From an uncultured Alphaproteobacteria bacterium (GTDB lineage: Bacteria > Pseudomonadota > Alphaproteobacteria > RF32 > CAG-239): a stretch of DNA of 64,000 nt. Both the position numbers and the translations under genes were made by a program. This document shows positions 2,027 through 64,000 of the stretch, in pieces. How positions within the stretch are numbered: position 1 is the first letter of the stretch; each line of letters begins with the position of its first letter. The notes under the pieces are model-generated. The model made no database searches, was not told the DNA's origin, and worked only from the letters and a program-made list of their open reading frames with translations. The DNA is taken from NCBI GenBank assembly GCA_944391445.1, contig CALXTL010000006.1, forward strand, positions 21,123-85,122, in the 5' to 3' direction.

Positions 2027-3613
2027 TCAATGATTTTCGATCGTTTTGGAGAATTTAACTTTAGGAAAATCTTCTTGAGCTTTATTCAAATGCCAGGCGT
2101 TGCGGGCTAAAAACACCGGCGCGCCGTCATTATCTTCGGCCAAATTGGCCTGATTGGCGTCAGAGAATTTTTTCCATTCGTTTTTGTCGTCGCAGCTGAC
2201 CCAGCGTGCGGTGAAATATTGTGTCTGTTCAAACATGACGGGCAGGTTGAATTCATTTTTAATTCGGTCTGCCATCACTTCAAATTGCAATGCGCCGACC
2301 ACGCCGACAATCCACTCGGCGCCGATCATCGGTTTAAACACACTGGCGCCGCCTTCTTCGGCAATTTGTCTCAGCGCATCTCCCAGATGTTTAGATTTGA
2401 GCGGATCCAGCGCCCGGGCAGATTTAAGCAATTCAGGCGCAAAAGACGGAATGCCAGTAAAGTTAAATTTTTCTCCTTCGGTAAGAGTATCGCCGATTCG
2501 GAGTTGCCCATGGTTAGGAATACCGATAATATCACCGGCAAAAGCATCTTCCGCTAGTTCGCGCTCCTGAGCCAGAAACATAACCGGTGTCGGCACTTTA
2601 AGCTCTTTTCCGGTGCGCACTTGCAACAGTTTCATGCCGCGTTTGAAGTGCCCGGAGCAAAGGCGCATAAAAGCAATGCGGTCGCGGTGTTTGGGATCCA
2701 TATTAGCTTGGATTTTAAAAACAAAACCACTGACTTTAGGCTCATCGGCCAAAACCATACGTTCCTTAGCCGGATGCGGGCGCGGCGCCGGAGCAATCTG
2801 ATGCAGACCGTTGAGAATTTCACGCACGCCGAAGTTATTAATGGCGCTGCCAAAAAAGACCGGCGTCATGGATCCTTCCAAATAAGCTTCAAGATCAAAA
2901 GGCGGGCAAAGTTCTTTAATCATTTCCACATCTTCGCGCAGTTTGGCCGCCAGATAGGCAGGCAACAAACGGTCAATCTTATCATCGTCCAAGCCGCGGC
3001 AGGTTTCAATAGTGTCATTGATCTGCGATTTGTTTCCGGTTTTATTCATTAGAATCAGCTGATCATTAATCAGATCATAGCAACCGGCAAAATCCTTGCC
3101 CATTCCGATTGGCCAGCTGGCCGGAGTTGCCTCCAGAGCCAATGTCTTTTCAATTTCGTCCAGCAGCGCGAAAGGATCTTGTCCTTCCCGATCCAACTTG
3201 TTAATAAAAGTCAGGATCGGCACATCACGCAGCCGGCAAACTTCAAACAGCTTTTTAGTTTGCGTTTCAATACCTTTGGCGGCGTCAAGCACCATTACGG
3301 CGGAATCAACCGCGGTCAAAACCCGGTAAGTATCTTCCGAAAAATCTTCGTGTCCCGGTGTGTCCAACAGATTAAAAGTGATTCCGCGGTAATCAAAAGT
3401 CATAACAGAAGAGGCAACGGAAATTCCGCGCTCTTGTTCGACTTTCATCCAGTCGGAATGTGCCCGGCGGTTTTCGCCGCGAGCTTTGACGGCACCTGCC
3501 TGTTGAATGGCTCCGCCAAACAGCAGCAGCTTTTCGGTCAGGGTTGTCTTACCGGCATCCGGATGGGAAATAATTGCAAATGTTTTACGTGGATTTGGTT
3601 TATTCTCAGGCAT
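2027..3613 (-). CDS. prfC: peptide chain release factor 3 (GTPase)
   Basis: 528 aa with the GTPase motifs 'SHPDAGKTT', 'DTPGHEDF' and 'NKLD'. Overall layout is RF3-like. Confidence 0.95.
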   Translation of the reverse strand: MPENKPNPRKTFAIISHPDAGKTTLTEKLLLFGGAIQQAGAVKARGENRRAHSDWMKVEQERGISVASSVMTFDYRGITFNLLDTPGHEDFSEDTYRVLTAVDSAVMVLDAAKGIETQTKKLFEVCRLRDVPILTFINKLDREGQDPFALLDEIEKTLALEATPASWPIGMGKDFAGCYDLINDQLILMNKTGNKSQINDTIETCRGLDDDKIDRLLPAYLAAKLREDVEMIKELCPPFDLEAYLEGSMTPVFFGSAINNFGVREILNGLHQIAPAPRPHPAKERMVLADEPKVSGFVFKIQANMDPKHRDRIAFMRLCSGHFKRGMKLLQVRTGKELKVPTPVMFLAQERELAEDAFAGDIIGIPNHGQLRIGDTLTEGEKFNFTGIPSFAPELLKSARALDPLKSKHLGDALRQIAEEGGASVFKPMIGAEWIVGVVGALQFEVMADRIKNEFNLPVMFEQTQYFTARWVSCDDKNEWKKFSDANQANLAEDNDGAPVFLARNAWHLNKAQEDFPKVKFSKTIENH

Positions 3614-3698
3614 ATTGACAGTCTTTACAAGTTACATACAAAATTGCCTCCTTAATAAAACAAATTTTAAGGAGGCACAAGAGTTTTTTATAAGCGCG

Positions 3699-5063
3699 TC
3701 AGAAAGGCGAAGAGACGTTAGGTGTTCCGCTTTGAACCTGAGCCGGTGTGAGAGTCTCTGTTTTGGAAATCAGAGCCACGGCCTCGTTTCCTTTGGTGAC
3801 CGTATTAATTTTTGGGGTTACCGGGATAGGAACTTCCTCAACGGTTGTTTTAACTTCCGTCACGTTTGCCTGAACATTATCCGCAACCGGCGCATTTTGC
3901 TTTGCCTGAGCGGAAACCGCCGACACGTCGGAAGCAGCAGCCGGAGCCGCGGCCTTTTTAACGTCGCGTTTGATACCAAGATACCGCTCAATTGCTTTCT
4001 TTTCCGCAGCTTTTTCCGAAGCGGTGATCAGGTTCAGATCATATAATACTTCCAATTTGCGCAAATCTTTGGCCGCGCCCAGAATATCTCTGGCCGGCGC
4101 TTTAGGCTTCATTCTTGTGCGTGGCGACGGCGGCAAAAGTGCTTCAATAATCACATCACGTTCGGCGGAAAATTCACGCGGGGTAATGGCGCGGGACTCT
4201 ACGCCGTCTTTCAAAACATTAATACGCTCCACAATCAATTCCGGTGCCGGAACGGGCTGGTCAATTCCTTTCGCCGGCGGCATGTTGGTCAGGGGAAGCA
4301 ATCCGCCGAGGTTAGACATGCGGCGGGTCAAAAACTCTTCTTTGGTGATATAGTCTTTTTCGGCAAGCTCTTTCAGTACCAGAAAACGCGAGATGATATT
4401 CTGCTCCTGTTGTGAGAACAAATTGTCAATGGCTGGGGCTTTTTTTGCGACCGGCGCAGGCTTTTCCTTCAAGGCGCGTTTAATGGTGGCTGTGCTCTGA
4501 GCATTGCCGGCAGCCGGAGAAATATTGAAGTTCATTTGTCCGTTCGGAGTCTCAACAACCAGTTCACTTTGTTTAATGGTCAGACTGCGCAGCCGCGTCT
4601 TGGCAATATCGGCAAAACTCTGCGGTTTGCCGGTGGAACTGCCGAGAATGGAAGTGTCGGCACTGTCAATGATGATCAAATCTTCATAGTTCTGCCGGGC
4701 ACGGTTGAGCCGGCCGAGCTGTTCGGCAGCCAGAGCGCCGACCAGCAGCCCTTGTTGGTTGCGCGGGTTTGCTTTAAGAGAGTCCATGGAAAGTTCGAGT
4801 GCTTTTTTGAAATTCCCCTGCGAATAAGCCATGGTGGCGTCGGCCGCTTCCTGATTGCCGTCTTTTTCAAATTGGCGCACCAGCCAGTTAGATTCTTCAT
4901 CGGTGTTTTTCTTATCCAAAATGGCACATCCCGTAAGCAGGGCAAAAGTGGCGGTTGGCAGCAGGATTGTTTTGAAAATGCGGGGGCAGAACACTGCGTT
5001 ACTCCTCAAAATGATAAACGGTTTCAGCGGCTTTTGCAGGTATATTATAAAAGTTTGCGTCAT
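3699..5063 (-). CDS. lipoprotein with a TPR-like N-domain and three short 'IT..E(F/K)' repeats, function unknown
   Basis: 454-aa ORF with the lipobox 'LLTGC'. It has an Ala/Pro-rich linker and a repeated ITKEEFLTRR / ITPREFSAER / ITASEKAAEK motif. The start codon is uncertain. Confidence 0.6.
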   Translation of the reverse strand: MTQTFIIYLQKPLKPFIILRSNAVFCPRIFKTILLPTATFALLTGCAILDKKNTDEESNWLVRQFEKDGNQEAADATMAYSQGNFKKALELSMDSLKANPRNQQGLLVGALAAEQLGRLNRARQNYEDLIIIDSADTSILGSSTGKPQSFADIAKTRLRSLTIKQSELVVETPNGQMNFNISPAAGNAQSTATIKRALKEKPAPVAKKAPAIDNLFSQQEQNIISRFLVLKELAEKDYITKEEFLTRRMSNLGGLLPLTNMPPAKGIDQPVPAPELIVERINVLKDGVESRAITPREFSAERDVIIEALLPPSPRTRMKPKAPARDILGAAKDLRKLEVLYDLNLITASEKAAEKKAIERYLGIKRDVKKAAAPAAASDVSAVSAQAKQNAPVADNVQANVTEVKTTVEEVPIPVTPKINTVTKGNEAVALISKTETLTPAQVQSGTPNVSSPF

Positions 5064-5098
5064 AATACAATAATTTTGTTTGTTCTGTGAATTTGTGC

Positions 5099-5126
5099 TT
5101 GATTTCTGAAAATAATTATGTAGTAT
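5099..5126 (+). promoter_or_regulatory. candidate sigma70 promoter for tRNA-Leu/tig
   Basis: TTGATT - 16 nt - TAGTAT, about 30 nt upstream of the tRNA 5' end. Confidence 0.4.
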
Positions 5127-5156
5127 TCAAGCAAATTAACCGTTTTTTAACAATCC

Positions 5157-5241
<85 letters not shown>

Positions 5242-5295
5242 TCTTTTCGTGTTTTGCGCGGAAAGATGGTTAATTTAACTGAAAAGAGTAAATTG

Positions 5296-6654
5296 ATGAA
5301 AATAACCGAATTAAAATCCGAAGGCTTGAAACAAGAGTTCAAAGTGGTCGTATCCGCCGCCGATATCGAAAAAAAGATTGACGCCAGAATCGCTCAAATT
5401 GCCAAAACGGCCAAGCTGCCCGGTTTCCGTGCCGGCAAAGCGCCCGTATCAATGCTGAAGCAAAAGTATCACGATTCCGTGATGGGTGAGGTGGTAGAGA
5501 CTCTCGTTCAGGAAGGAACCGGTGAAGTTATCAAATCCAAAAAGTTGCGTCCGGCCGTCCAGCCGAATGTGAAAATTACGTCTTTTGCCGCAGGCAAAGA
5601 TCTTGAGTTTGAGATTGATACCGAAAATCTTCCCGAAGTTAAAGTCGGTGACTTTTCAAAAATTGCTCTGACCAAATACACCGCCGAAGTTCCTGCTGCG
5701 GAAGTAGACAAAGCACTCAAATATTTGTCTGAAGCGCGCAAAGAGACCGCCAAAGTTGACGGTAAGGCCGCGGAAAAAGGCGATGTTGTAATGATTGATT
5801 TTGTCGGCTCCGTCGACGGTAAAGAGTTCAAGGGCGGCAAAGGCAGCAATTATCCGCTTGAGCTTGGTTCCGGCACGTTCATTCCCGGTTTTGAAGACCA
5901 GTTGCTTGGCGCTGTCGCTGGAGATAAAATTGACGTTAAAGTCAAATTCCCCGAGAATTATCACGCCAAAGAGCTGGCCGGCAAAGACAGCGTTTTTGCC
6001 GTAGAAGTCAAGGAAGTGCGCGAGCCCAAAAAAGTTGAGATCAACGATGAATTTGCCAAATCCATGGGTGAGGAGAGCCTTGAAAAACTCAAGGAAAACA
6101 TTAAAAACCGCATCAAAGGCGATTATGAAAACGCCTCCCGTATGAAGATCAAACGTCAACTGTTGGATGCGCTGGATAAAGAATACAAATTTGCCACGCC
6201 GGATTCTCTGGTTGATGCCGAATACAAAGCGATTGTTGATCAGTATGAGCAGGCTAAAAAGTACAATCAGCTGGACGAAAGCGAAAAGAAAAAAACTGAA
6301 GATGAATTGCTCAAAGAGTATAAAGACATCGCTGTCCGTCGGGTCAAACTCGGCTTGTTGTTGTCGCAGGTTGGCCAGGATGCATCCGTTTCCATCAAGC
6401 CTGAGGATATCAACGAAGCCATTATGAAGGAAGCTCGCAAATATCCCGGACAGGAAAAAGCTGTTTTGGATTATTATCTCAAAAACAAGCAAGCTGTTGA
6501 AGCTTTAAAAGCGCCGATTTTTGAAGAAAAAATTGTTGACTATATCATCAGCAAAGCTAAAGTAGAAGAGAAAGTTGTCTCTGTTGAAGAACTCTACAAC
6601 TTCAATGAAGATGCTTCAAAGCCTAAGAAGACTGCTGCCAAGAAGTCTGCTTAA
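5296..6654 (+). CDS. tig: trigger factor
   Basis: The ORF track starts at 5200, inside the tRNA. The first plausible start is ATG 5296 (MKITELKSEGL...). The protein has an FKBP-type middle domain (GFRAGKAP..., DFVGSVDGKEF) and lies upstream of clpP-clpX. Confidence 0.9.
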   Translation: MKITELKSEGLKQEFKVVVSAADIEKKIDARIAQIAKTAKLPGFRAGKAPVSMLKQKYHDSVMGEVVETLVQEGTGEVIKSKKLRPAVQPNVKITSFAAGKDLEFEIDTENLPEVKVGDFSKIALTKYTAEVPAAEVDKALKYLSEARKETAKVDGKAAEKGDVVMIDFVGSVDGKEFKGGKGSNYPLELGSGTFIPGFEDQLLGAVAGDKIDVKVKFPENYHAKELAGKDSVFAVEVKEVREPKKVEINDEFAKSMGEESLEKLKENIKNRIKGDYENASRMKIKRQLLDALDKEYKFATPDSLVDAEYKAIVDQYEQAKKYNQLDESEKKKTEDELLKEYKDIAVRRVKLGLLLSQVGQDASVSIKPEDINEAIMKEARKYPGQEKAVLDYYLKNKQAVEALKAPIFEEKIVDYIISKAKVEEKVVSVEELYNFNEDASKPKKTAAKKSA

Positions 6655-6732: not shown

Positions 6733-7140
6733 TCAATCTCGAAAGCTGACGTGTTCATGCAGAAAATAAAGCAAAACGGCCGAAACAAGGCCAAAGACGG
6801 CCTGAGCAATCCAGGCGGCCAGCTTCAGACAATCGATTGCCAGCCACAAAAACGCATAGTTGCATAAAATCAGCCCCGCATAAACCAATACGGCGCGTCC
6901 GTATTGCCGGGCCGGATGTCCTTCTGCGCGGAAGACATAATGCCGCATGGTGAAAATCGAAACGTTGATACCGATCAAATAGGTCAGCGGCAAAGCAAGC
7001 TGATAATTGCTCAGCCACTCAAGCCCCACAAATATCAGATAGGAAAAAACGGTGTTAAAACCACCGACAGCCCAAAAACGGATTTGCTTCGGCCAGGTCT
7101 GAAACCACCAGTTTTCCAGTTGACGATATAAATGTATCAT
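6733..7140 (-). CDS. GtrA-family membrane protein (polyprenyl-sugar translocation type)
   Basis: 135 aa with 4 TM segments. Size and hydrophobic pattern fit GtrA, and it is the last gene of a glycosylation cassette. Confidence 0.6.
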   Translation of the reverse strand: MIHLYRQLENWWFQTWPKQIRFWAVGGFNTVFSYLIFVGLEWLSNYQLALPLTYLIGINVSIFTMRHYVFRAEGHPARQYGRAVLVYAGLILCNYAFLWLAIDCLKLAAWIAQAVFGLVSAVLLYFLHEHVSFRD

Positions 7141-53579: not shown

Positions 53580-54563
53580 CTAAGCCAGGCTTTTGCGCTT
53601 GATAACAAATTTTCTGCCGCAGATATCCAAAATATTTGTCCGACAGTCGATATCAACCAGCTTATAATAGGCAAGAAATTTGCCGAGCCTGAATTTATAG
53701 CGGATTGAAGGATAAAAACGGGAGAAAATTTCCTGCCAGTGTTCAAAGCCGGGACGGCTGACAACTTCTTTTTCATAGCGTTTTGTCTGCAGAATAATTT
53801 GCCGCATGTATGCTTTTTTCTTAACAGTGTTGTTCTGATGCCAGCGGTAGGAAAACAAAACATCATCAAGATATTTCATTTTACCGATTTTAGAAAGCTG
53901 CAGCATCATATACCAGTCTTCCAGCGGTGCCTCTGGTTTATATCCGCCGGTTTGACGCAGTGCTTTTGCCGTGATCAGATACCCGTTGGGAACATAATTC
54001 CGGGTGACAAAATTTTCATAGGCGCCGAAGGACTCTGAGTGAAAATCTATATCAGGATAAAGACTTTGCAAAAATGCACCGAAAGTATGATATTTTGCAA
54101 CTGTCAGCGGCACATTGTTTTGGTGTGCATCCCAGCCGGTGCGCTCGGAGCTCGTGTCAATCAGTTCATTATCACCCACAACCAGCACATATTCCGGGTG
54201 TGAGGTTAAAAATTTAACCTCAACGGCCAAAGCATGGCTTTTAGCCACATCGTCTGAAGCAATAAAATAAATAAAATCTCCTCTGGCCAATTCTATCAGC
54301 CGGTTCATAGTCCGGCAGGTGCCGCTGTTTTTCTGCGTCAACATCACCACGCGGACAAAGCGGTTTTCGCATTTTTCTTTCAGGGAAAATATCTGCTGCA
54401 GGGTGCCATCGGTAGAACCGTCGTCAATAATCAGCAGTTCAATATTCCGGTATGTTTGCAAGATAATGGATTCAATCGTCTGCCGAATATATTGTTCATG
54501 GTTATAAGCGGGAATGCAAACGGATACAAGCGGTGCATCATTGTTCATTTTATAATTCCTCAA
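53580..54563 (-). CDS. family 2 glycosyltransferase
   Basis: 'VSVCIPAYNHEQYIRQTIESIILQTYRNIELLIIDDGSTDGT'. Confidence 0.8.
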   Translation of the reverse strand: MRNYKMNNDAPLVSVCIPAYNHEQYIRQTIESIILQTYRNIELLIIDDGSTDGTLQQIFSLKEKCENRFVRVVMLTQKNSGTCRTMNRLIELARGDFIYFIASDDVAKSHALAVEVKFLTSHPEYVLVVGDNELIDTSSERTGWDAHQNNVPLTVAKYHTFGAFLQSLYPDIDFHSESFGAYENFVTRNYVPNGYLITAKALRQTGGYKPEAPLEDWYMMLQLSKIGKMKYLDDVLFSYRWHQNNTVKKKAYMRQIILQTKRYEKEVVSRPGFEHWQEIFSRFYPSIRYKFRLGKFLAYYKLVDIDCRTNILDICGRKFVIKRKSLA

Positions 54564-55308
54564 ATTTGAATTTTTTAGTTTTTTTCAGCCGAAAATCCGG
54601 TCGAAATTCATCAAATATCTTACGCCAGTGAATATGATCATTGCACTTGGCCGTGACATTGTTTTCATCGGTAAAAAAGGCCACCCGGCGGATAAAAAAG
54701 CCTGGATCTTGCAATTTTTTTTCCAAATCCGGCTGCTTCCCTTGTTCCAGAATCAACAGCAGGTCAAACGAATTATGACACAGACTTTGCAAGGTTGCAA
54801 ACAACAGGCGAAGTTTATCGGCGAGGGCAGTGTCAAGAATGTCGCTTGGCGCTAATTTGTATATATACAAATTTTTTTTGCCATCCGCCGCGGTTTGGCG
54901 GAATTTCTGTTTTAGGTGGTTAAGCCGGGAAAAAAGTTCTTCCCGGTCGGCTGTGATGACATCATCGAAAGGATTTTCCCGCCACACACTGACGGGCGCT
55001 TTTCCATGAAAACAAATGCCCGTATTCTGGCAGCGCCACATCGGATTAGTGTTTTTAAGACCGCCGGCGGCAATAGTTTCAATATTGCTCAAAGCAGCGG
55101 TAAGGTGTGCAAGGTCGATACAATTGGCCCAGGCAAACAAACTGCTTTCAACAAAATGATATTTTAAAAAGAATTGAAAAGAAACTTCGCAATTATAGCC
55201 AAGAGAAATGATATGACCGTAGTATTTTTGATGCCGTGGTCGCAGCAGCCGGCGCAAAGAACTAAACAAAAGCATTAATTGCCTCCGCAATTTGCGCCGC
55301 TTCTTCAT
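54550..55308 (-). CDS. DUF1796-like (putative papain-like) protein
   Basis: '[14 protein letters not shown]' resembles the DUF1796 N-terminal motif. The start is ambiguous (55308 or 55275), and both choices overlap the upstream gene. Confidence 0.4.
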
Positions 55309-56350
55309 CGGTCAGCACCGGAGAAATCGGCAGAGACAAAACTTCGCGGTGCAGTTTTTCGCTGATTGGGAAGTGTTGTTCACGCCATTCCTGATATGCT
55401 TCTTGTCGATGTGGCGGTGTCGGATAATGAATATTGGTCTGAATGCCTTTTTCAGCCAGAAATTTTTGCAGTCTGTCGCGTTCGGGGCAGCAAATGGCAA
55501 AAATATGCCAGACATGTGCCGTCTCATTTACCGCTTGCGGCAATGAAATCAGCGGATTATTAATATGCCGCCGATAATAGGTGGCAATTTCGCGCCGTCT
55601 GTTATTATCGGCATCCAGGTGAGCCAAACGGACATCCAGTACGGCCGCCTGTAACTCATCCAACCGTGAATTAACGCCTTTATACAGATGATGGTATTTA
55701 CGGTCGCTGCCATAGTTGGCCAAGGCTTTTATTTTTTCATACAGGGCGGTGTCATTAGTGGTAATGCCGCCGGCATCGCCCATAGCGCCAAGATTTTTAC
55801 CCGGATAAAAGGAGAAAGCTGCCGCATCGCCGAGGCTGCCGACACGTTTTCCATGATAAATTGCCCCATGAGCCTGCGCGGCATCTTCAATAACTTTCAG
55901 ATGATGCTTGGCGGCCAGCTTGTTTATGGAAGCCATATCGGCGGCTTGTCCATAAAGATGAACGGCAATAATCGCTTTGCTTTTTTTAGTCAAAGCAGCC
56001 TCAATTCGCTTTGGGTCGATATTGCGGGTTTCCGGGTCTGGTTCAACCAAAACCGGCGTGCAACCGTTTTCAGATACGGAAAGAATGGTTGCAATAAAAG
56101 TATTGGCCGGGACAATAATTTCGTCACCTGGACCAAAACCATATGCGCGGATAATCAGTTTCAGAGCGTCTAACCCGTTGGCAACGCCCAACGCGTGGCG
56201 AACGCCGCAAAATGCAGCAAAATTTTGTGCAAAGCGCTCATTTTCTTTTCCTTGCAGATACCAGCCGCTGTCCAGAACACTTTTGAACCGGGCGTCAATT
56301 TCGTCTCGGAAGCGTTCGTTGATTTTATGTAAATCCAAAAACTTTATCAT
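55262..56350 (-). CDS. DegT/DnrJ/EryC1/StrS-family sugar aminotransferase (FdtB/QdtB-like)
   Basis: '[10 protein letters not shown]' and '[15 protein letters not shown]' (PLP lysine). Confidence 0.85.
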
Positions 56351-57360
56351 ATGATTCCTTTTTTACGAAGTTTATAAGCCGCCCAGTCATATATTTTTTT
56401 AATCAGACGGTATTTGAGCTTTTTTAATTGCGGATGCAATATCAGATTAATTTCTTTTTTGTGATTTAAGCAAATTGTTAAGACATCAAAAAATTTTTCA
56501 CGGGCTTCCAAACAGAAGCTTTGATTTTCTTTAGCCTGATTCAAACAGGAAAGACAATGACAAATTTCTTTCCAGGCTTTGCCAATAAAAAATTGATGAT
56601 ACCTGCCGTCAAAATAGCGGTCATAATCTATAAAACACCGAGCTTGAATTGCCGCTTTTTCAAAATCGTTCAATCCCGTCCATATGCCGCCGGACAACAA
56701 ACGGTAAACACCGCTGCTTTCATTGACAAAATGTGCTTTGCCGCTGTGCAAATGCATGATGAATCTGTCGGCGTCTCCTTCAAAAGATCTTTCAGCATCA
56801 GTGCCGACAGCGTGTTGCACAATGTCGGGAATGCCATTGCGGTAGATCGTATTTCTGAACACCATTCCGGTTGTTTGTGAAAAGAAAATCTTGTCATGTA
56901 AAAAATCATCAAAAGTAAAATCGGCCGTTTTCAGTTTTGTCTGCACATAAAGGCGCGAACTTCCGTTTTCACGGAGCGTCGTCACGTTGGTATAATAAAT
57001 ACTGAAATCCTTGTTTTTCTCCAAAAAGTCCACAGCTTTTTGCAAATAAGCGTCGTCTGTCCAATAGTCATCGGCATCAAGTAACGTAAAATAAGGCGTT
57101 TTTGTTTGCGCTTTGGCCCGCAGAATATTTTGGAGATAGCGGCCGTTTTCTTTATTTTCTAAAACACGGATAATGTTTGGATATTTTTGTGCATAAGCGC
57201 GGATAATCTCAAGGCTGTTGTCTTTCAAAGAGTGGTCATCGGTAATGAGCAGGCAAAACGGAAAAGACGTCCTTTGCGCCAGAACGGATTCGATAGCCTG
57301 TCCGACATACCGGGCCTGATTATAATTGGACATAATCACTGTCAGTTTGGGGTGTCGCAT
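56347..57360 (-). CDS. family 2 glycosyltransferase
   Basis: '[24 protein letters not shown]' and 'LLDADDYW'. Its stop overlaps the next start (ATGA). Confidence 0.75.
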
Positions 57361-58745
57361 TGTTTGTCTCTTTTGGTATATTTTATTTTGATAATTCCGA
57401 ACAGGACCAAAGTCCTGCGGCGGCCGTTTTTGATTTTTGCGAAAAGTTTAAATTTTCTTCGCCCAAAGTGTTTTTTGCCGCGGCGAAAGGCAGCAATGAG
57501 TTTGCGATCATCTCTGTCCTTAGGGATTTCATTTCTTTTTTTCTTCATCTCATCCAAAATATCCAGGCGGATGAATTTGATGCCGTGCCAATAAAAATGC
57601 CGTCGTGGATCATAAATAATTTCAGTTTTGCTGCAGGGATAGTAGACGAGTTCAGTTTCATGAGAGGAAAGATCATTGCTTTGCGGTGTAAACGGCATAT
57701 TTCCGGCATAGAGAAAATCCAAATCGCTGCTTTGCCGCAGACCGAGCAGGTTAAGCGGCGTGCTACCAACGCAGCAGATATCGTTAAGATCAACATTTTG
57801 TTCGTTGGCTTCTTTTCTGAGCTGCTCAGTCATGACGTCAAATTTTTTATCTTCAAAGTCGAAGGGGCAAAAATTCAGCAAATGAAGAGAATCCTCATTA
57901 AAATAAGTCTCTGCCAGCCAAAGAGCTTCTTCCCGCGTGTCATTGATGTGCACACTGTAGTTTCCCAAGGCCAATAATTCTCTGATTTCTGCTTTGGCCT
58001 GCACGGCTTTTTCTAGACTGTCGCACACAAAGACATAGGCTCGGAGCGGCCGGCGTCCCATCGATTTTCGGGCGTGAGCCTGCGCACCGGCAAAATGGTT
58101 TTCCGTCGAACCGATCCAGGGTTCTCTTTCCCAGAATGAGCCGTAAGAAAGCTTTTTCAAATTGACATAACCGTTAAAAGTCAGATGAACATCTTTTTGA
58201 TAAAAAATAAAACCGTATTTTTCAAGAATTTGTTCGACTTGTCTGTCTTTGGCTTGGTCTGCAACAGCATGCAGATTGACGATATAGGCGTAGGGATTAA
58301 GCCTGACATATTCCAGAGCGGCATAATCGGCAAACAGAGGGTTAAGTCCTTTGTCGCGGAAAAATTTATAATCATATAAATCGTGTCGGCCGTCCGGAGT
58401 AAGTGCCACATCCAGGCCGAGAACGGCAGCACAGGCAAGGCGGTGAGCGCCGTCGCTGATCTCTCCGTTGTCGCCGATCGGGATCAGACCTTTGCTTTTG
58501 TCAAAACCATGAGTCTGCATATTGGCAAACAAACATTCAAAAGCGCGAATAAAATCTTCGGGTGAATTTTTGGGATGCCCGTCGCTCGGCTCCTGCTCAA
58601 AAAAATGATTAAATGCCCGAATATGCTCAAGATACATCTCCCGGAAAAAAGGGAGATTCTTATCTTTATACCGCAAATAAAGATATTTAAAAATCAAATC
58701 AAACCGTTTGGAGCAAAGCAGTAGGCTTAAAGCGTTTGTTTGCAT
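57342..58745 (-). CDS. hypothetical protein with an N-terminal ParB/sulfiredoxin-like motif and a C-terminal Pol-beta-type nucleotidyltransferase-like motif
   Basis: 'PIGDNGEISDGAHRLACAA' is a DGxHR-type motif. 'CCVGSTPLNLLGLRQSSDLDFLY' is GS-x9-11-DxD-like. The C-terminal tail is basic. Confidence 0.45.
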   Translation of the reverse strand: MQTNALSLLLCSKRFDLIFKYLYLRYKDKNLPFFREMYLEHIRAFNHFFEQEPSDGHPKNSPEDFIRAFECLFANMQTHGFDKSKGLIPIGDNGEISDGAHRLACAAVLGLDVALTPDGRHDLYDYKFFRDKGLNPLFADYAALEYVRLNPYAYIVNLHAVADQAKDRQVEQILEKYGFIFYQKDVHLTFNGYVNLKKLSYGSFWEREPWIGSTENHFAGAQAHARKSMGRRPLRAYVFVCDSLEKAVQAKAEIRELLALGNYSVHINDTREEALWLAETYFNEDSLHLLNFCPFDFEDKKFDVMTEQLRKEANEQNVDLNDICCVGSTPLNLLGLRQSSDLDFLYAGNMPFTPQSNDLSSHETELVYYPCSKTEIIYDPRRHFYWHGIKFIRLDILDEMKKKRNEIPKDRDDRKLIAAFRRGKKHFGRRKFKLFAKIKNGRRRTLVLFGIIKIKYTKRDKQCDTPN

Positions 58746-58747
58746 TT

Positions 58748-59683
58748 TTATAACTCCAGACGGTAAAAATTATAAGCAACGCTGCGGGCGCCGAAACTTT
58801 CTTTCTGGGCACACAGACCGGTATTGAACACAGTACCGTTTTGCTCGGTAGAGATACCGAAATCAAACCATTTCTTTTTCCCCTGAAAATAATCAATCAA
58901 GTGCTTGATCAAAAGATCCAGACCGCCGATTTGTCTGGCAGTTTCGTTAGCAGCCAGATATTGCGTATGCACGCAGTTTGAGTATATAAAAACAAGGGCG
59001 CCGGCAATCATTTGTCCGCCATGCATTGCCGTCCATAAACGAATATTTTCCGGAAAGCGGGATTTCAGTAATACCAGCTCGGCAGCCGTATGTACGGCTT
59101 TGGTTTGATGATGCTGCCACAAAACCTGATTTTCCAGCCGGATAAAATTTTCAAAATCTTCCGATTCCGCAACAGAAACATTTTCCCGCCGGGCACGGGC
59201 AATTTGTGCTTTTCGGCCTTTAGACATTTTTTGCGGATTTTCCAGATCAATAACTGAAGCAACATCGCTTCGCCATAAATTGGCGCCGTGTTGCAGCAAT
59301 GGCCATAAATATTCTTCCGCCGGAATAAGATGATAAATATAAGGAACGCTTTTATAAATAAATTCATGGATTTTGCGGTCGTGCAGATAAGTTATCAAAG
59401 CGTCGACACAATCGTTAATATGATGTTGTTTGGTTTCCGGCGCAGTGAAAAAGCCGCCGTAAGTCAGCCCGCCGTGCGAGCAGAGGACGCCGTCTTGTAC
59501 CGAGGCCGGCAGCAAAGCAACCAGTTTGTCATCGTCATAAAACAATAGTGAAAAATCAGTAAAACGGTCGGCATGATATTCCATAAAATTGCGATGGAAC
59601 ATAAACATCGGTGATTTTGAACGATCAATAAAATCATCCCATATGTCATGAAATTCCTGGGTATATTGAAAAATTCTAATCAT
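58748..59683 (-). CDS. FemAB/GNAT-like acyl- or aminoacyl-transferase
   Basis: True start is MIRIFQYTQEF at 59683 (ATGATTAG overlap with the fdtA-like stop). The longer track ORF is an out-of-frame overlap of the upstream gene. 'KGRKAQIARARR' is FemAB-like. Confidence 0.4.
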   Translation of the reverse strand: MIRIFQYTQEFHDIWDDFIDRSKSPMFMFHRNFMEYHADRFTDFSLLFYDDDKLVALLPASVQDGVLCSHGGLTYGGFFTAPETKQHHINDCVDALITYLHDRKIHEFIYKSVPYIYHLIPAEEYLWPLLQHGANLWRSDVASVIDLENPQKMSKGRKAQIARARRENVSVAESEDFENFIRLENQVLWQHHQTKAVHTAAELVLLKSRFPENIRLWTAMHGGQMIAGALVFIYSNCVHTQYLAANETARQIGGLDLLIKHLIDYFQGKKKWFDFGISTEQNGTVFNTGLCAQKESFGARSVAYNFYRLEL

Positions 59684-60101
59684 GAGCAACCTCATGCAAA
59701 AAAAGAGCGTAGTCCCGGATATAGTCTGCTTCATCATAATGTTCGGAAGCCAACACCATGAGAACGCAATCTGCAGAAAAATGAGTAAATTCCCGCCAAA
59801 TATTATGCCGAAGATAAAGTCCTTGCGCCGGATTGTCAAGATGCACAACTGTGCGCCGGCAGCCGTCATCCAGAACAAAATCACAGCTGCCGGCCAGGCA
59901 GAGGATAACCTGTTCAAGCTGGCGGTGGGCATGTTTTCCGCGGATGGCATCATAAGATGTTCCCCAAATGTAATAAACCCGCTTAACGGCAAAGGGGAAA
60001 TCCGCTCCTGCTTCCAAAGCGACCAGATTTCCCCTGAGATCACCGTGTATTTTGAAGTCAAGTAATTGATACATTGAGCCCGTACCATAAGGTTGATGCA
60101 T
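59676..60101 (-). CDS. WxcM/FdtA-like cupin (dTDP-4-keto-6-deoxyhexose 3,4-ketoisomerase type)
   Basis: 'DLRGNLVALE...PFAVKRVYYIWGT...RGKHAHRQLEQVILCLAGS'. Possible starts are TTG 60107, ATG 60101 and ATG 60074. Confidence 0.7.
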   Translation of the reverse strand: MHQPYGTGSMYQLLDFKIHGDLRGNLVALEAGADFPFAVKRVYYIWGTSYDAIRGKHAHRQLEQVILCLAGSCDFVLDDGCRRTVVHLDNPAQGLYLRHNIWREFTHFSADCVLMVLASEHYDEADYIRDYALFLHEVAHD

Positions 60102-60121
60102 GTTCAAAACAGCCCGAATTA

Positions 60122-60136
60122 ACGGACGTTAGATTT
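60122..60136 (+). repeat. IR-L of the invertible cassette (ACGGACGTTAGATTT)
   Basis: Perfect reverse complement of 60234-60248. Confidence 0.9.
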
Positions 60137-60203
60137 CCGAGTTATAATGCAAAGTCTGAAAAAAAGCGAAACCGAAGAAACAAGCGCGGCAGAGAAATTT
60201 TTA

Positions 60204-60232
60204 TTGCAAACAAAATTAAACTAAAGTATAAG
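60204..60232 (+). promoter_or_regulatory. sigma70-type promoter TTGCAA-17-TATAAG inside the cassette
   Basis: Hexamers at 60204-09 and 60227-32 with a 17-nt spacer. The -10 ends 1 nt before IR-R. Confidence 0.55.
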
Positions 60233-60233
60233 A

Positions 60234-60248
60234 AAATCTAACGTCCGT
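60234..60248 (+). repeat. IR-R of the invertible cassette (AAATCTAACGTCCGT)
   Basis: Perfect reverse complement of 60122-60136. Its last base is part of the recombinase stop codon. Confidence 0.9.
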
Positions 60249-60853
60249 CAGATTTTCCGATCTTTTGCCCGGGACAGGAAGTTATAAATTGTTTTCGTGC
60301 TGACCCCGACAGATTCAGCGATTCGCGTTTTAGAAACTCCCTGAGCCAGAAGTTGAAATATTTCATTTTCTTTACCGTCCAAAACATGTTTTTTGTTTTT
60401 ACTGCCGAAAGCGCGGCCGAGCTTGTGCCCGCAGGATTTAAGACGCAGCAGGGATTCTCTGGTTCTCTGGCTGATGAGGTCTCGTTCAATTTCCGCGGCC
60501 AGCCCGAAGGCAAAAGCCAGAACCTTGCTTTGCAAATCGGCTCCGAGTTTATAATTGTCTTTAATTGTCCGTACCTGAACATTTTTCTGCATGCAAATGT
60601 TTAATATAGACATAATCTGAAATAAATTGCGCCCCAGCCTGGAAATCTCCGAAGCAATCAGAATATCGCCGGATTTCAGCCGTCGCAGCAAGACGCCCAA
60701 ACGCCGTTCTTCAAAACTTTTGCTGCCGCTGACGGTTTCCCGGATCCAGCAGTCAATCAAAAAATTTTCCCGTTGGCAAAAATTGATGATTTCAAATTCC
60801 TGATTATCAAGATTCTGTTTCCCTGTACTCACTCTGATATAGCCGTATATCAT
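60248..60853 (-). CDS. small serine recombinase / DNA invertase (Hin/Mpi-like)
   Basis: 'MIYGYIRVSTGKQ' (nucleophile Ser), 'SGDILIASEISRLGRN', 'EIERDLISQRT' and the C-terminal HTH 'GVSKTRIAESVGVSTKTIYNFL'. Strong AAAGGAGGAG SD. Confidence 0.85.
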   Translation of the reverse strand: MIYGYIRVSTGKQNLDNQEFEIINFCQRENFLIDCWIRETVSGSKSFEERRLGVLLRRLKSGDILIASEISRLGRNLFQIMSILNICMQKNVQVRTIKDNYKLGADLQSKVLAFAFGLAAEIERDLISQRTRESLLRLKSCGHKLGRAFGSKNKKHVLDGKENEIFQLLAQGVSKTRIAESVGVSTKTIYNFLSRAKDRKI

Positions 60854-60963
60854 GACTCCTCCTTTGCTTATGATAAGAATTTATTGTTTGGAAAAGTTTG
60901 GGCAAAAAAGTCGAAACCGGCAGGCAAAATAAAATCCGAAACAGCTTTATGGCATAGCCGTTC

Positions 60964-63213: not shown

Positions 63214-64000
63214 ATGGAATTAACGCAATTACGTTATTTTAAGACTGCCGCGGAATGTAATAATTTCTCCGAAGCTGCGGAAAGACTGCATGTTTCCCAA
63301 CCGGCGCTCAGTCTTTCCGTTAAAAAGCTGGAAGAAGAGCTCGGCGTTCCGTTGTTTGAACGCTCAAAAAATAAAATATGTTTGAACGATGCTGGTCGTC
63401 TGGCTTTGACTTATGCCGAGGCCATACTTGCCAAAGCCGATGAGATGAAAAACACATTTTATCAGTTTATCCGCAGAGATAATGTACTGTTGCTTGGTTT
63501 TTGCGATCCGGGGCCGATGCGTTTTTCCGTTCCGCTGTTACAAAAACATCATCCGAATATTGATATCACTTCGGCTTTGCTGCCGGATGAAAACAATCTG
63601 GAAACATTGTTGCTGACACATCAATATGATGCCGTTATTTCCATCAAAAAGCCGCAAAACGAAAATATCATCACCATACCTTTCGCCGAAGAGGAATTGA
63701 TGCTCTCAGTTCCGGCCGGTCACCCTTTGGCAACAAAAAAAAGCGTCTGCCTGCATAATGAGCAGGATTTGCAGTTGATAAATTATTCCGGCGACGGGGC
63801 CTATGTTCGGCAGATAAAACCTTTCACCGATTGGCTGTCCGATAAATTCGGTATGAAAACTTATAATGATTATTTTGTTTTCCGTCAGTTGCTTAACAAT
63901 GACAACCGACTGTGTTTCACAACCAAACTTGTCCGACATTATCGCAACGACGGTGCCGATCGCGTTATAATTCCGCTTGAGGACGAAGGGCTAAAAGCAT
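63214..64000 (+). CDS. LysR-family transcriptional regulator (3' end beyond window)
   Basis: 'MELTQLRYFKTAAECNNFSEAAERLHVSQPALSLSVKKLEEELGVPLFER' is an N-terminal wHTH. The frame is open to the window edge. Confidence 0.85.
   Translation, partial: MELTQLRYFKTAAECNNFSEAAERLHVSQPALSLSVKKLEEELGVPLFERSKNKICLNDAGRLALTYAEAILAKADEMKNTFYQFIRRDNVLLLGFCDPGPMRFSVPLLQKHHPNIDITSALLPDENNLETLLLTHQYDAVISIKKPQNENIITIPFAEEELMLSVPAGHPLATKKSVCLHNEQDLQLINYSGDGAYVRQIKPFTDWLSDKFGMKTYNDYFVFRQLLNNDNRLCFTTKLVRHYRNDGADRVIIPLEDEGLKA

Follow-up and report, generated by a model that had tools for sequence, protein, structure and literature searches.

The stretch of DNA analysed here, 64,000 nt of contig CALXTL010000006.1 from the uncultured alphaproteobacterial assembly GCA_944391445.1 (positions 21,123 to 85,122; hereafter the window), carries on its minus strand a serine recombinase gene (60248-60853), downstream of it a tightly packed operon of seven genes (60101 down to 53580), and between the two a short non-coding segment bracketed by perfect inverted repeats. 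The left repeat, IR-L (ACGGACGTTAGATTT, 60122-60136), and the right repeat, IR-R (AAATCTAACGTCCGT, 60234-60248), are each 15 nt long, 100% complementary and spaced by 97 nt; the sequence between them includes a promoter-like element on the plus strand, TTGCAA-17-TATAAG (60204-60232). An initial annotation of this DNA had read the arrangement as a serine invertase with an invertible promoter that is apparently locked OFF, and its description of the parts was borne out: the sequence, coordinates and spacing of the repeats, the 201-aa serine recombinase with intact motifs and a helix-turn-helix (HTH) domain whose stop codon touches IR-R, and the minus-strand operon from 60107 to 53580, which leaves no room for a fixed promoter, were all recovered. 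The locus is very probably a site-specific DNA inversion switch (inverton), namely an Mpi-family invertible promoter for a surface-glycan operon, and would be in the OFF orientation in this assembly.

The recombinase belongs to the Mpi family

The 201-aa product of the recombinase gene matches Pfam Resolvase (3.9e-29) and HTH_7 and contains the motifs YIRVSTGKQ, SRLGR and EIERDLISQRT; the catalytic Ser9, SRLGR and the E..R..RT motif (ERDLISQRT) align with those of Gin (4m6f), with a similarity of ~59 bits. The likeness to Mpi-type systems suggested at the outset held up in a comparison with the NCBIfam model NF009949 ('master DNA invertase Mpi family'), whose curated cut-off of 272 bits the protein passes by a narrow margin (284.7 bits; residues 1-197 on model positions 1-197 of 203). 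Among Bacteroidales proteins, it shares 50% identity with the recombinase encoded in a metagenome-assembled genome (MAG; locus L022) and 49% with a Ca. Cryptobacteroides protein annotated by NCBI as Mpi family, and relatives in Alphaproteobacteria MAGs already bear the name 'master DNA invertase Mpi family' at NCBI. Judged from these comparisons, which used Bacteroidales members of the family other than Mpi of Bacteroides fragilis, the recombinase appears closer to Bacteroidales Mpi-type proteins than to Hin and Gin or to resolvases. It is the only recombinase at the locus and is of the serine type, without the phage integrase fold that would mark a tyrosine-recombinase switch. An intact recombinase adjoins the segment in every lineage that we compared, and we infer that the adjacent enzyme is the catalyst of the inversion.

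The core of the repeats, TAACGTCCGT, agrees at 8 of 10 positions with ARACGTWCGT, a putative consensus of Mpi target repeats; neither it nor its variants was found as an Mpi repeat consensus in the literature searched, where the Bacteroides papers that mention Mpi give none. The Bacteroidales MAG with the 50%-identical recombinase has repeats of the sequence AAAACGTCCGT, with the same ACGTCCGT core as the repeats of the window.

Two 26-bp sites flank a 117-bp segment

The pair of IR-L and IR-R was the only perfect inverted repeat of at least 15 nt with a gap of 20-300 nt in the 64-kb window, and Markov-1 simulations yielded such repeats with a mean of 0.025 per simulated window (at least one in 5 of 200). 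No further copy of the 15-mer with up to three mismatches was found in the window outside the switch. The mismatch search did reveal an imperfect third copy that overlaps IR-R (60241-60255), and the recombinase-proximal site is therefore a 26-bp near-palindrome that encloses IR-R, GAAAATCTAACG-TC-CGTCAGATTTTC (60232-60257), with a 12-bp half-site, a 2-bp centre and a second 12-bp half-site as in hix and gix. Its outer half is supplied by the 3' end of the recombinase gene, namely the final four codons plus the stop codon (TGA, 60250-60248), the last base of which is common to IR-R. A half-site search placed the distal site, which encloses IR-L, at 60113-60138; its outer half, CCCGAATTAACG, is degenerate, with 6 of 12 matches to the remaining half-sites.

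The centres of the two sites are complementary, GA in the distal (60125-60126) and TC in the proximal site (60244-60245), and crossover probably takes place at these dinucleotides, which would delimit an invertible segment of 117 bp (60127-60243) with a unique interior at 60137-60233. Among lineages the centres vary (GA, AA or AC) and are complementary within every pair. We placed the proximal crossover at 60244-60245 because of the symmetry of the site and because of two contigs from one study, L014 and L015, which are 98-99% identical through the central AA of their proximal site and unrelated thereafter (junction at 2083-2091 in L014 and 6643-6651 in L015). Such a joint is consistent with what is expected of a serine recombinase that cuts at the central dinucleotide; in these contigs the enzyme seems to have joined its own site to other DNA, via deletion, a larger inversion or different cargo.

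The half-site search detected no half-site ahead of the recombinase gene that would point to a third recombination site, and no other target site was detected in the 64-kb window or in ~3.4 kb past it. In the Bacteroidales MAG mentioned above, 20-nt repeats (CTGCACAATAAAACGGACGT, core ACG-GA-CGT) at 5943-5962 and 6805-6824 enclose a TAnnTTTG promoter as well as the gene of the Mpi-family recombinase, yielding an invertible unit of ~840 bp. A gene-flipping arrangement of this kind was rejected for the window, given the lack of a half-site upstream of its recombinase gene. A stretch in that upstream region (60892-60919) weakly resembles the segment interior at 60150-60174 over 27 nt; the local score of 26 was matched by 1% of shuffles, and the similarity may be due to chance.

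The segment occurs in both orientations

Contigs were recruited by exact protein look-up, via an identical recombinase, an identical FdtA (the product of the first operon gene) or the close recombinase variant P0121, and the intergenic region was read in each of the 20 independent metagenome or MAG contigs obtained. Orientation A, that of the window, was present in 16 of them and the opposite orientation B in four, L003/L026 (ERZ16268164), L025 (GCA_949288205.1), L028 (ERZ17292904) and L062 (ERZ28613696), in which 60137-60233 appears as the exact reverse complement between unchanged repeats. Between flipped and unflipped contigs the flanks are 99.2-99.8% identical and the segment is 99-100% identical as the reverse complement. 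Hence, the segment occurs in both orientations in nature and the inversion is bounded exactly by the repeats, as the promoter-inversion interpretation had foreseen.

Orientation B was found on at least two haplotypes that were also seen in A, one marked by an A6 homopolymer run (L001 in A, L003 in B) and the other by a G/C single-nucleotide polymorphism (L058-61 in A, L062 in B), and the inversion is therefore recurrent. Three contigs (L031, L062 and L063) start or stop at a repeat or inside the segment, which is the effect that a mixed population is expected to have on an assembly graph. Over 13.7 kb, L002 matches the window at 100% identity.

One might object that the two orientations represent a fixed ancient polymorphism or an artefact of assembly, with no switching at present, as the evidence all comes from contigs and from comparisons between samples, and as 15-nt repeats could in principle confuse an assembler. 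We consider this highly improbable. The repeats are shorter than the usual assembly k-mers, so the junction k-mers are orientation-specific and an assembler cannot invent an orientation, and orientation B was obtained in four assemblies from at least three studies and pipelines, on haplotypes shared with A. Also against this objection stand the same polymorphism in four other lineages, the recombinase open reading frame, which is intact and identical in at least 18 contigs, and the contig ends that pile up at the repeat.

The related loci were gathered in a scan of a genome collection and by further look-ups (recombinases 49-72% identical), and most of them stem from MAGs titled Alphaproteobacteria or Ca. 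Enterousia. Four related recombinase groups from other gut alphaproteobacterial MAGs (68-71% identity to the window recombinase) likewise contain both orientations, scored as ON where the promoter-like element faces the operon and as OFF where it faces the recombinase gene. The P0120 group (68%) comprises seven ON and three OFF contigs, the P0002 group (69%, listed as the closest relative) two of each, and the P0082 group (68%) two ON and eight OFF; in the P0023 group (71%), L011 is OFF, L032 is ON with a scaffold gap of N in the switch, and L033 ends at the site. A scan of JGI metagenomes with GACGTTAGATTT-N85-115-AAATCTAACGTC gave a single match, L064, which was rejected as an unrelated ~29-nt repeat beside a vWA-like gene, with no recombinase near it; the species appears to be absent from the collection scanned.

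A promoter-like element on one strand of the segment

The promoter-like element consists of TTGCAA (60204-60209), a 17-nt spacer and TATAAG (60227-60232), is separated from IR-R by the single base 60233, reaches 9/12 in sigma-70 scoring and is present on one strand only. It is not listed by a standard sigma-70 scan, because that scan demands a T at position 6 of the -10 element. As the window is oriented, it is directed at the 3' end of the recombinase gene; after inversion, the -10 element occupies 60138-60143 of the minus strand and precedes the ATG of fdtA by ~30 nt. The initial annotation had described both the element and this flipped geometry, reading into an fdtA-like gene, correctly, and the naturally occurring orientation B realizes the latter.

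Both strands of every segment from ten lineages were scored for sigma-70 promoters on a scale of 12. The best match (8-10/12) was confined to one strand in all ten lineages, and in nine of them it had the form TTGACT, TTGATT or TTGCAA, a spacer of 17-18 nt, and TATAAG, TATAAA or TATGAA, with the -10 element ending 18-20 nt short of the end of the distal anchor. The same element is equally distant from the site in L012, L013, L014, L016, L034, L044, L048, L054 and L056; in the tenth lineage, L011, the best match is TTGGAA-17-TATAAT, located ~40 nt further in. The opposite strand gave background matches (7-8/12) at scattered positions. Within a lineage, the promoter faces either the operon or the recombinase gene. 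As the sites are symmetric while the element is strand-specific and sits at one end, it is best read as a cargo promoter, and on that reading the window would be in the OFF and orientation B in the ON orientation; TTGCAA-17-TATAAG itself is probably active as a promoter. The state originally assigned to the window, locked OFF, is thus retained as OFF but not as locked, in view of the intact recombinase and of both orientations on the same haplotypes. The further suggestion of the initial annotation, that the promoter in its OFF orientation may put an antisense brake on the invertase, is conjectural.

The converse assignment would make the window orientation ON, with the operon driven by a weak promoter on the opposite strand or by read-through, and with TTGCAA-17-TATAAG expressing something else or silencing the recombinase by antisense transcription. 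It could draw on TTCGCT-18-TATAAC (8/12; -10 element at 60141-60146, minus strand), which in orientation A precedes the ATG by ~40 nt, and on the majority of contigs in this orientation (16/20). However, this match has a poor -35 element, is not conserved and equals the background of the non-promoter strand in every lineage, and in the P0120 group the majority state has a strong promoter facing the operon, so that majority status does not define ON. We therefore regard the converse assignment as very hard to sustain.

A second promoter-like site, TTAACG-18-TATAAT (60119-60148, plus strand, 10/12), has the same polarity as TTGCAA-17-TATAAG, with its -10 element (60143-60148) within the segment and its -35 element within IR-L; after inversion it reads CTGACG-18-TATAAT and is directed towards fdtA. 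Because it is not conserved among relatives, its function is uncertain. Between the two promoter-like elements and outside any spacer lies an A run (60159-60165) of variable length, with 7 nt in the window and part of the strains but 6 nt in the remainder.

The segment could also invert and yet owe its effect mostly to the termination, in one orientation, of transcripts that read through from the recombinase gene, rather than to a promoter of its own. A terminator scan indeed picked up the proximal site in orientation A as a 12-pair hairpin with the tail TATACTTTAG, which in orientation B would be CCGAGTTATAATG; the palindrome followed by a U-rich stretch would stop transcripts in A but not in B, and recombinase gene and operon are co-directional in every lineage. 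Yet no more than 3 of the hairpin pairs are G-C and its U tract is marginal, and in the relatives, whose recombinase stop codon lies 40-80 nt from the site, the U tract is not preserved, whereas the one-stranded pair of -35 and -10 elements is. Termination as the main mode of action is therefore unlikely, but it could act together with the promoter instead of replacing it. We rejected the possibility that the segment holds an internal terminator or a structured RNA, as on either strand its interior forms less stable folds than shuffled sequences do (z = +1.4 and +1.7), and the only stable structure in the region is the pairing between the two repeats. No Rfam family was matched at the switch locus, the sole match in the window being a tRNA at 5157-5238.

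Some observations count against an invertible promoter as the explanation for this locus. The contigs come from different samples and are ~99.5% identical rather than clonal, and it is the contig breaks that suggest switching within one population. Promoter activity and the ON and OFF labels rest on sequence and comparison. The final T that is usually conserved in -10 elements is missing from TATAAG, which also extends into the A/T-rich half-site at its outer edge; because of this overlap, its conservation could partly reflect recombinase binding. As there is no strong terminator between the recombinase gene and the operon, read-through from the former could express the operon in either orientation. 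Finally, the genome-wide reach that 'master' in the Mpi name implies was not observed, as no second site for the enzyme to act on was found in the 64-kb window.

A predicted operon for surface-glycan decoration

The first gene of the operon, fdtA (59676-60101, minus strand), encodes a 141-aa FdtA-type 3,4-ketoisomerase of deoxythymidine diphosphate (dTDP)-sugars (Pfam FdtA, 3.7e-47), as also called in related contigs. It is followed on the same strand by genes for a GNAT/FemAB-like acyltransferase (58748-59683), a 467-aa protein with no family match (57342-58745), a GT2 glycosyltransferase (56347-57360), a DegT-type aminotransferase (55262-56350), a 241-aa protein with no family match (54550-55275) and, as the last gene, another GT2 glycosyltransferase (53580-54563). 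The seven genes overlap or abut (overlaps of 8, 19, 4 and 14 nt and a gap of 2 nt), and the 3' end of the operon faces a convergent cheR gene. Only 20 nt separate IR-L from the fdtA ATG at 60101 (14 nt from a TTG at 60107), and for this reason the operon has no promoter of its own.

Going by the FdtA/FdtB/FdtC pathway, the gene set presumably makes and transfers an N-acylated dTDP-3-amino-3,6-dideoxyhexose. The operon contains neither a flippase nor a polymerase gene, and the switch is therefore likely to cause phase-variable decoration of an existing surface glycan, not to control a whole capsule.

We propose that the adjacent Mpi-family serine recombinase binds the two hix-like 26-bp sites, which are in inverted orientation, cuts at the central GA/TC dinucleotides (60125-60126 and 60244-60245) and thereby would invert the 117 bp between the cuts. 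In orientation A (OFF), the promoter of the segment would fire into the 3' end of the recombinase gene and leave the operon without a promoter; in orientation B (ON), transcripts would begin within the repeat and run on into fdtA, and the cell would add a sugar of the 3-amino-3,6-dideoxyhexose type to its surface glycan.

The acyltransferase gene differs by strain. It is called either with 311 aa, overlapping fdtA by 8 nt, or with 284 aa after a 73-nt gap (L001 11251-12105 versus L003 3771-4706), and in the window its frame is open for 446 codons across fdtA (58748-60088, minus strand). These length differences may reflect variation in the start site or frameshifts. On the other side of the locus, ~3.4 kb beyond the recombinase gene and just past window position 64000, L001 carries beside a tRNA gene a truncated second serine recombinase gene (6475-6564, MAVIGYIRVSTDKQTYKHQRFEIEEYAKK*), which looks like a remnant of another element. 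Compared with L001, L002 has an inserted Slam-like (SlipAM) gene and a gene for a 623-aa protein (2961-6216) between a pyridine-nucleotide oxidoreductase gene and this recombinase remnant.

The MAGs of the relatives, the TrmFO protein of the window (74-81% identical to gut-MAG proteins), a GC content of ~46% and the neighbouring genes of the locus (cheR and response regulator genes) support a small-genome gut alphaproteobacterium as the probable host.

Several further features mark the related loci. In most of them, the first gene behind the switch encodes a ~198-aa paralogue of the recombinase, which is 28% identical and matches Pfam Resolvase weakly (L016 4785-5387, L013 6831-7424, L044 5842-6438, L032 4934-5530 and L048 3853-4455). 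Its catalytic motif is degenerate, with YLDCSKKN, YLNADKKN or YLDKNGKN in place of YIRVSTxxQ; none of these variants keeps the Arg, and some have also lost the Ser. The paralogue is often followed by a 300-355-aa protein of repeated HTH domains (L016 5380-6378). Both are absent from the operon of the window; they might control the switch or cross-regulate further loci. The identical P0082 recombinase gene, with its switch and operon, is preceded by phage tail genes in part of the contigs and by ArsP and thioredoxin genes in the rest (L048 and L052 versus L049-L051, upstream of 3001), which suggests a mobile module or the insertion of an adjacent prophage. In L016, a gene for an HU-like DNA-bending protein (3529-3801) is located directly upstream of the recombinase gene, which deserves mention because the inversion of a segment of ~120 bp should need sharp DNA bending.

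Comparison with known switches

The closest counterpart is the Mpi system of B. fragilis (FinA/Ssr2), which controls the promoters of the capsular polysaccharides PSA to PSH. The recombinase falls into the same family by NF009949, inverted repeats likewise bracket a short promoter-bearing segment immediately ahead of a glycan operon, the host likewise lives in the gut, and the repeats of the Bacteroidales MAG have the core ACG-NN-CGT, as do those of the window. Here, however, the host phylum is that of the Alphaproteobacteria, the promoter is of the sigma-70 type (TTGACA/TATAAT) instead of the TAnnTTTG type of Bacteroides, and the operon is devoid of UpxY and UpxZ genes. The segment is also shorter, 117 bp, the invertible segments of Bacteroides reportedly measuring 168-226 bp in work by Krinos in 2001. 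Moreover, the recombinase is encoded beside its only detected target, in contrast to Mpi of B. fragilis, which acts on 13 distant regions (PMC4747536).

With Hin/hix of Salmonella and Gin/gix of phage Mu, the system shares the chemistry of serine recombinases, an enzyme of ~190-200 aa with the HTH at its C-terminus, and sites that are imperfect 26-bp palindromes around a 2-bp centre, and promoter inversion by Hin likewise switches surface-antigen genes on and off. The sequence similarity to Gin is distant, and the hin gene and a Fis-bound enhancer are located inside a segment of ~1 kb, whereas here the gene is outside and the 117-bp segment holds only promoter-like sequence. By the geometry of the invertasome, this segment would be too short for an enhancer loop of the Hin type. 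The fimS element of E. coli (FimB/FimE) and the flgB and cwpV switches of Clostridioides difficile (RecV) are also short invertible elements upstream of genes for surface structures, with a locally encoded recombinase and phase variation as the outcome. They employ tyrosine rather than serine recombinases, and the switches of C. difficile take effect once transcription has been initiated, whereas the segment described here carries a putative promoter.

Invertible promoters have been found in Proteobacteria, in far smaller numbers than in Bacteroidales (PMC8748976), and some proteobacterial examples were also reported elsewhere (PMC11602134). No description of the present switch family was found in the literature searched. 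The mechanism is of a well-known kind; what is new is the phylum, the sigma-70 type of the cargo promoter, the very short segment and the strictly adjacent enzyme, and also that these bacteria possess a large family of such switches.

A more far-reaching view, which we put forward tentatively and with considerable doubt, is that switches of the Mpi type form a portable module, which passed between Bacteroidales and the Alphaproteobacteria of the gut, was refitted with a sigma-70 promoter and acquired extra layers of feedback. In the first such layer, that of the window, the OFF promoter, running antisense into a recombinase gene whose final codons double as a recombination half-site, would bias the switch towards OFF or stabilise that state; in the second, the degenerate paralogue and then the multi-HTH protein, which in most relatives would be the first products of the ON state, could lock the switch or cross-regulate others, a role that could be analogous to that of UpxY and UpxZ. 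To our knowledge, feedback layers of this kind have not been described for Bacteroides.

Conclusions

The orientation of the switch can be read from metagenomes, and the ratio of ON to OFF can be related to host, diet, phage load and inflammation. For PSA of B. fragilis, the ON/OFF ratio has been related to such factors (PMC10939037). The parts of the switch are compact, a 201-aa recombinase, 26-bp sites, a 117-bp cargo and a sigma-70 promoter, and could serve as a small genetic memory element. Phase-variable surface glycans are a strategy of immune and phage evasion that defines Bacteroides; the switch presented here would extend them to the poorly known small-genome Alphaproteobacteria of the gut (RF32/CAG-type MAGs), with one recombinase family and one site core serving two distant phyla in a single habitat.

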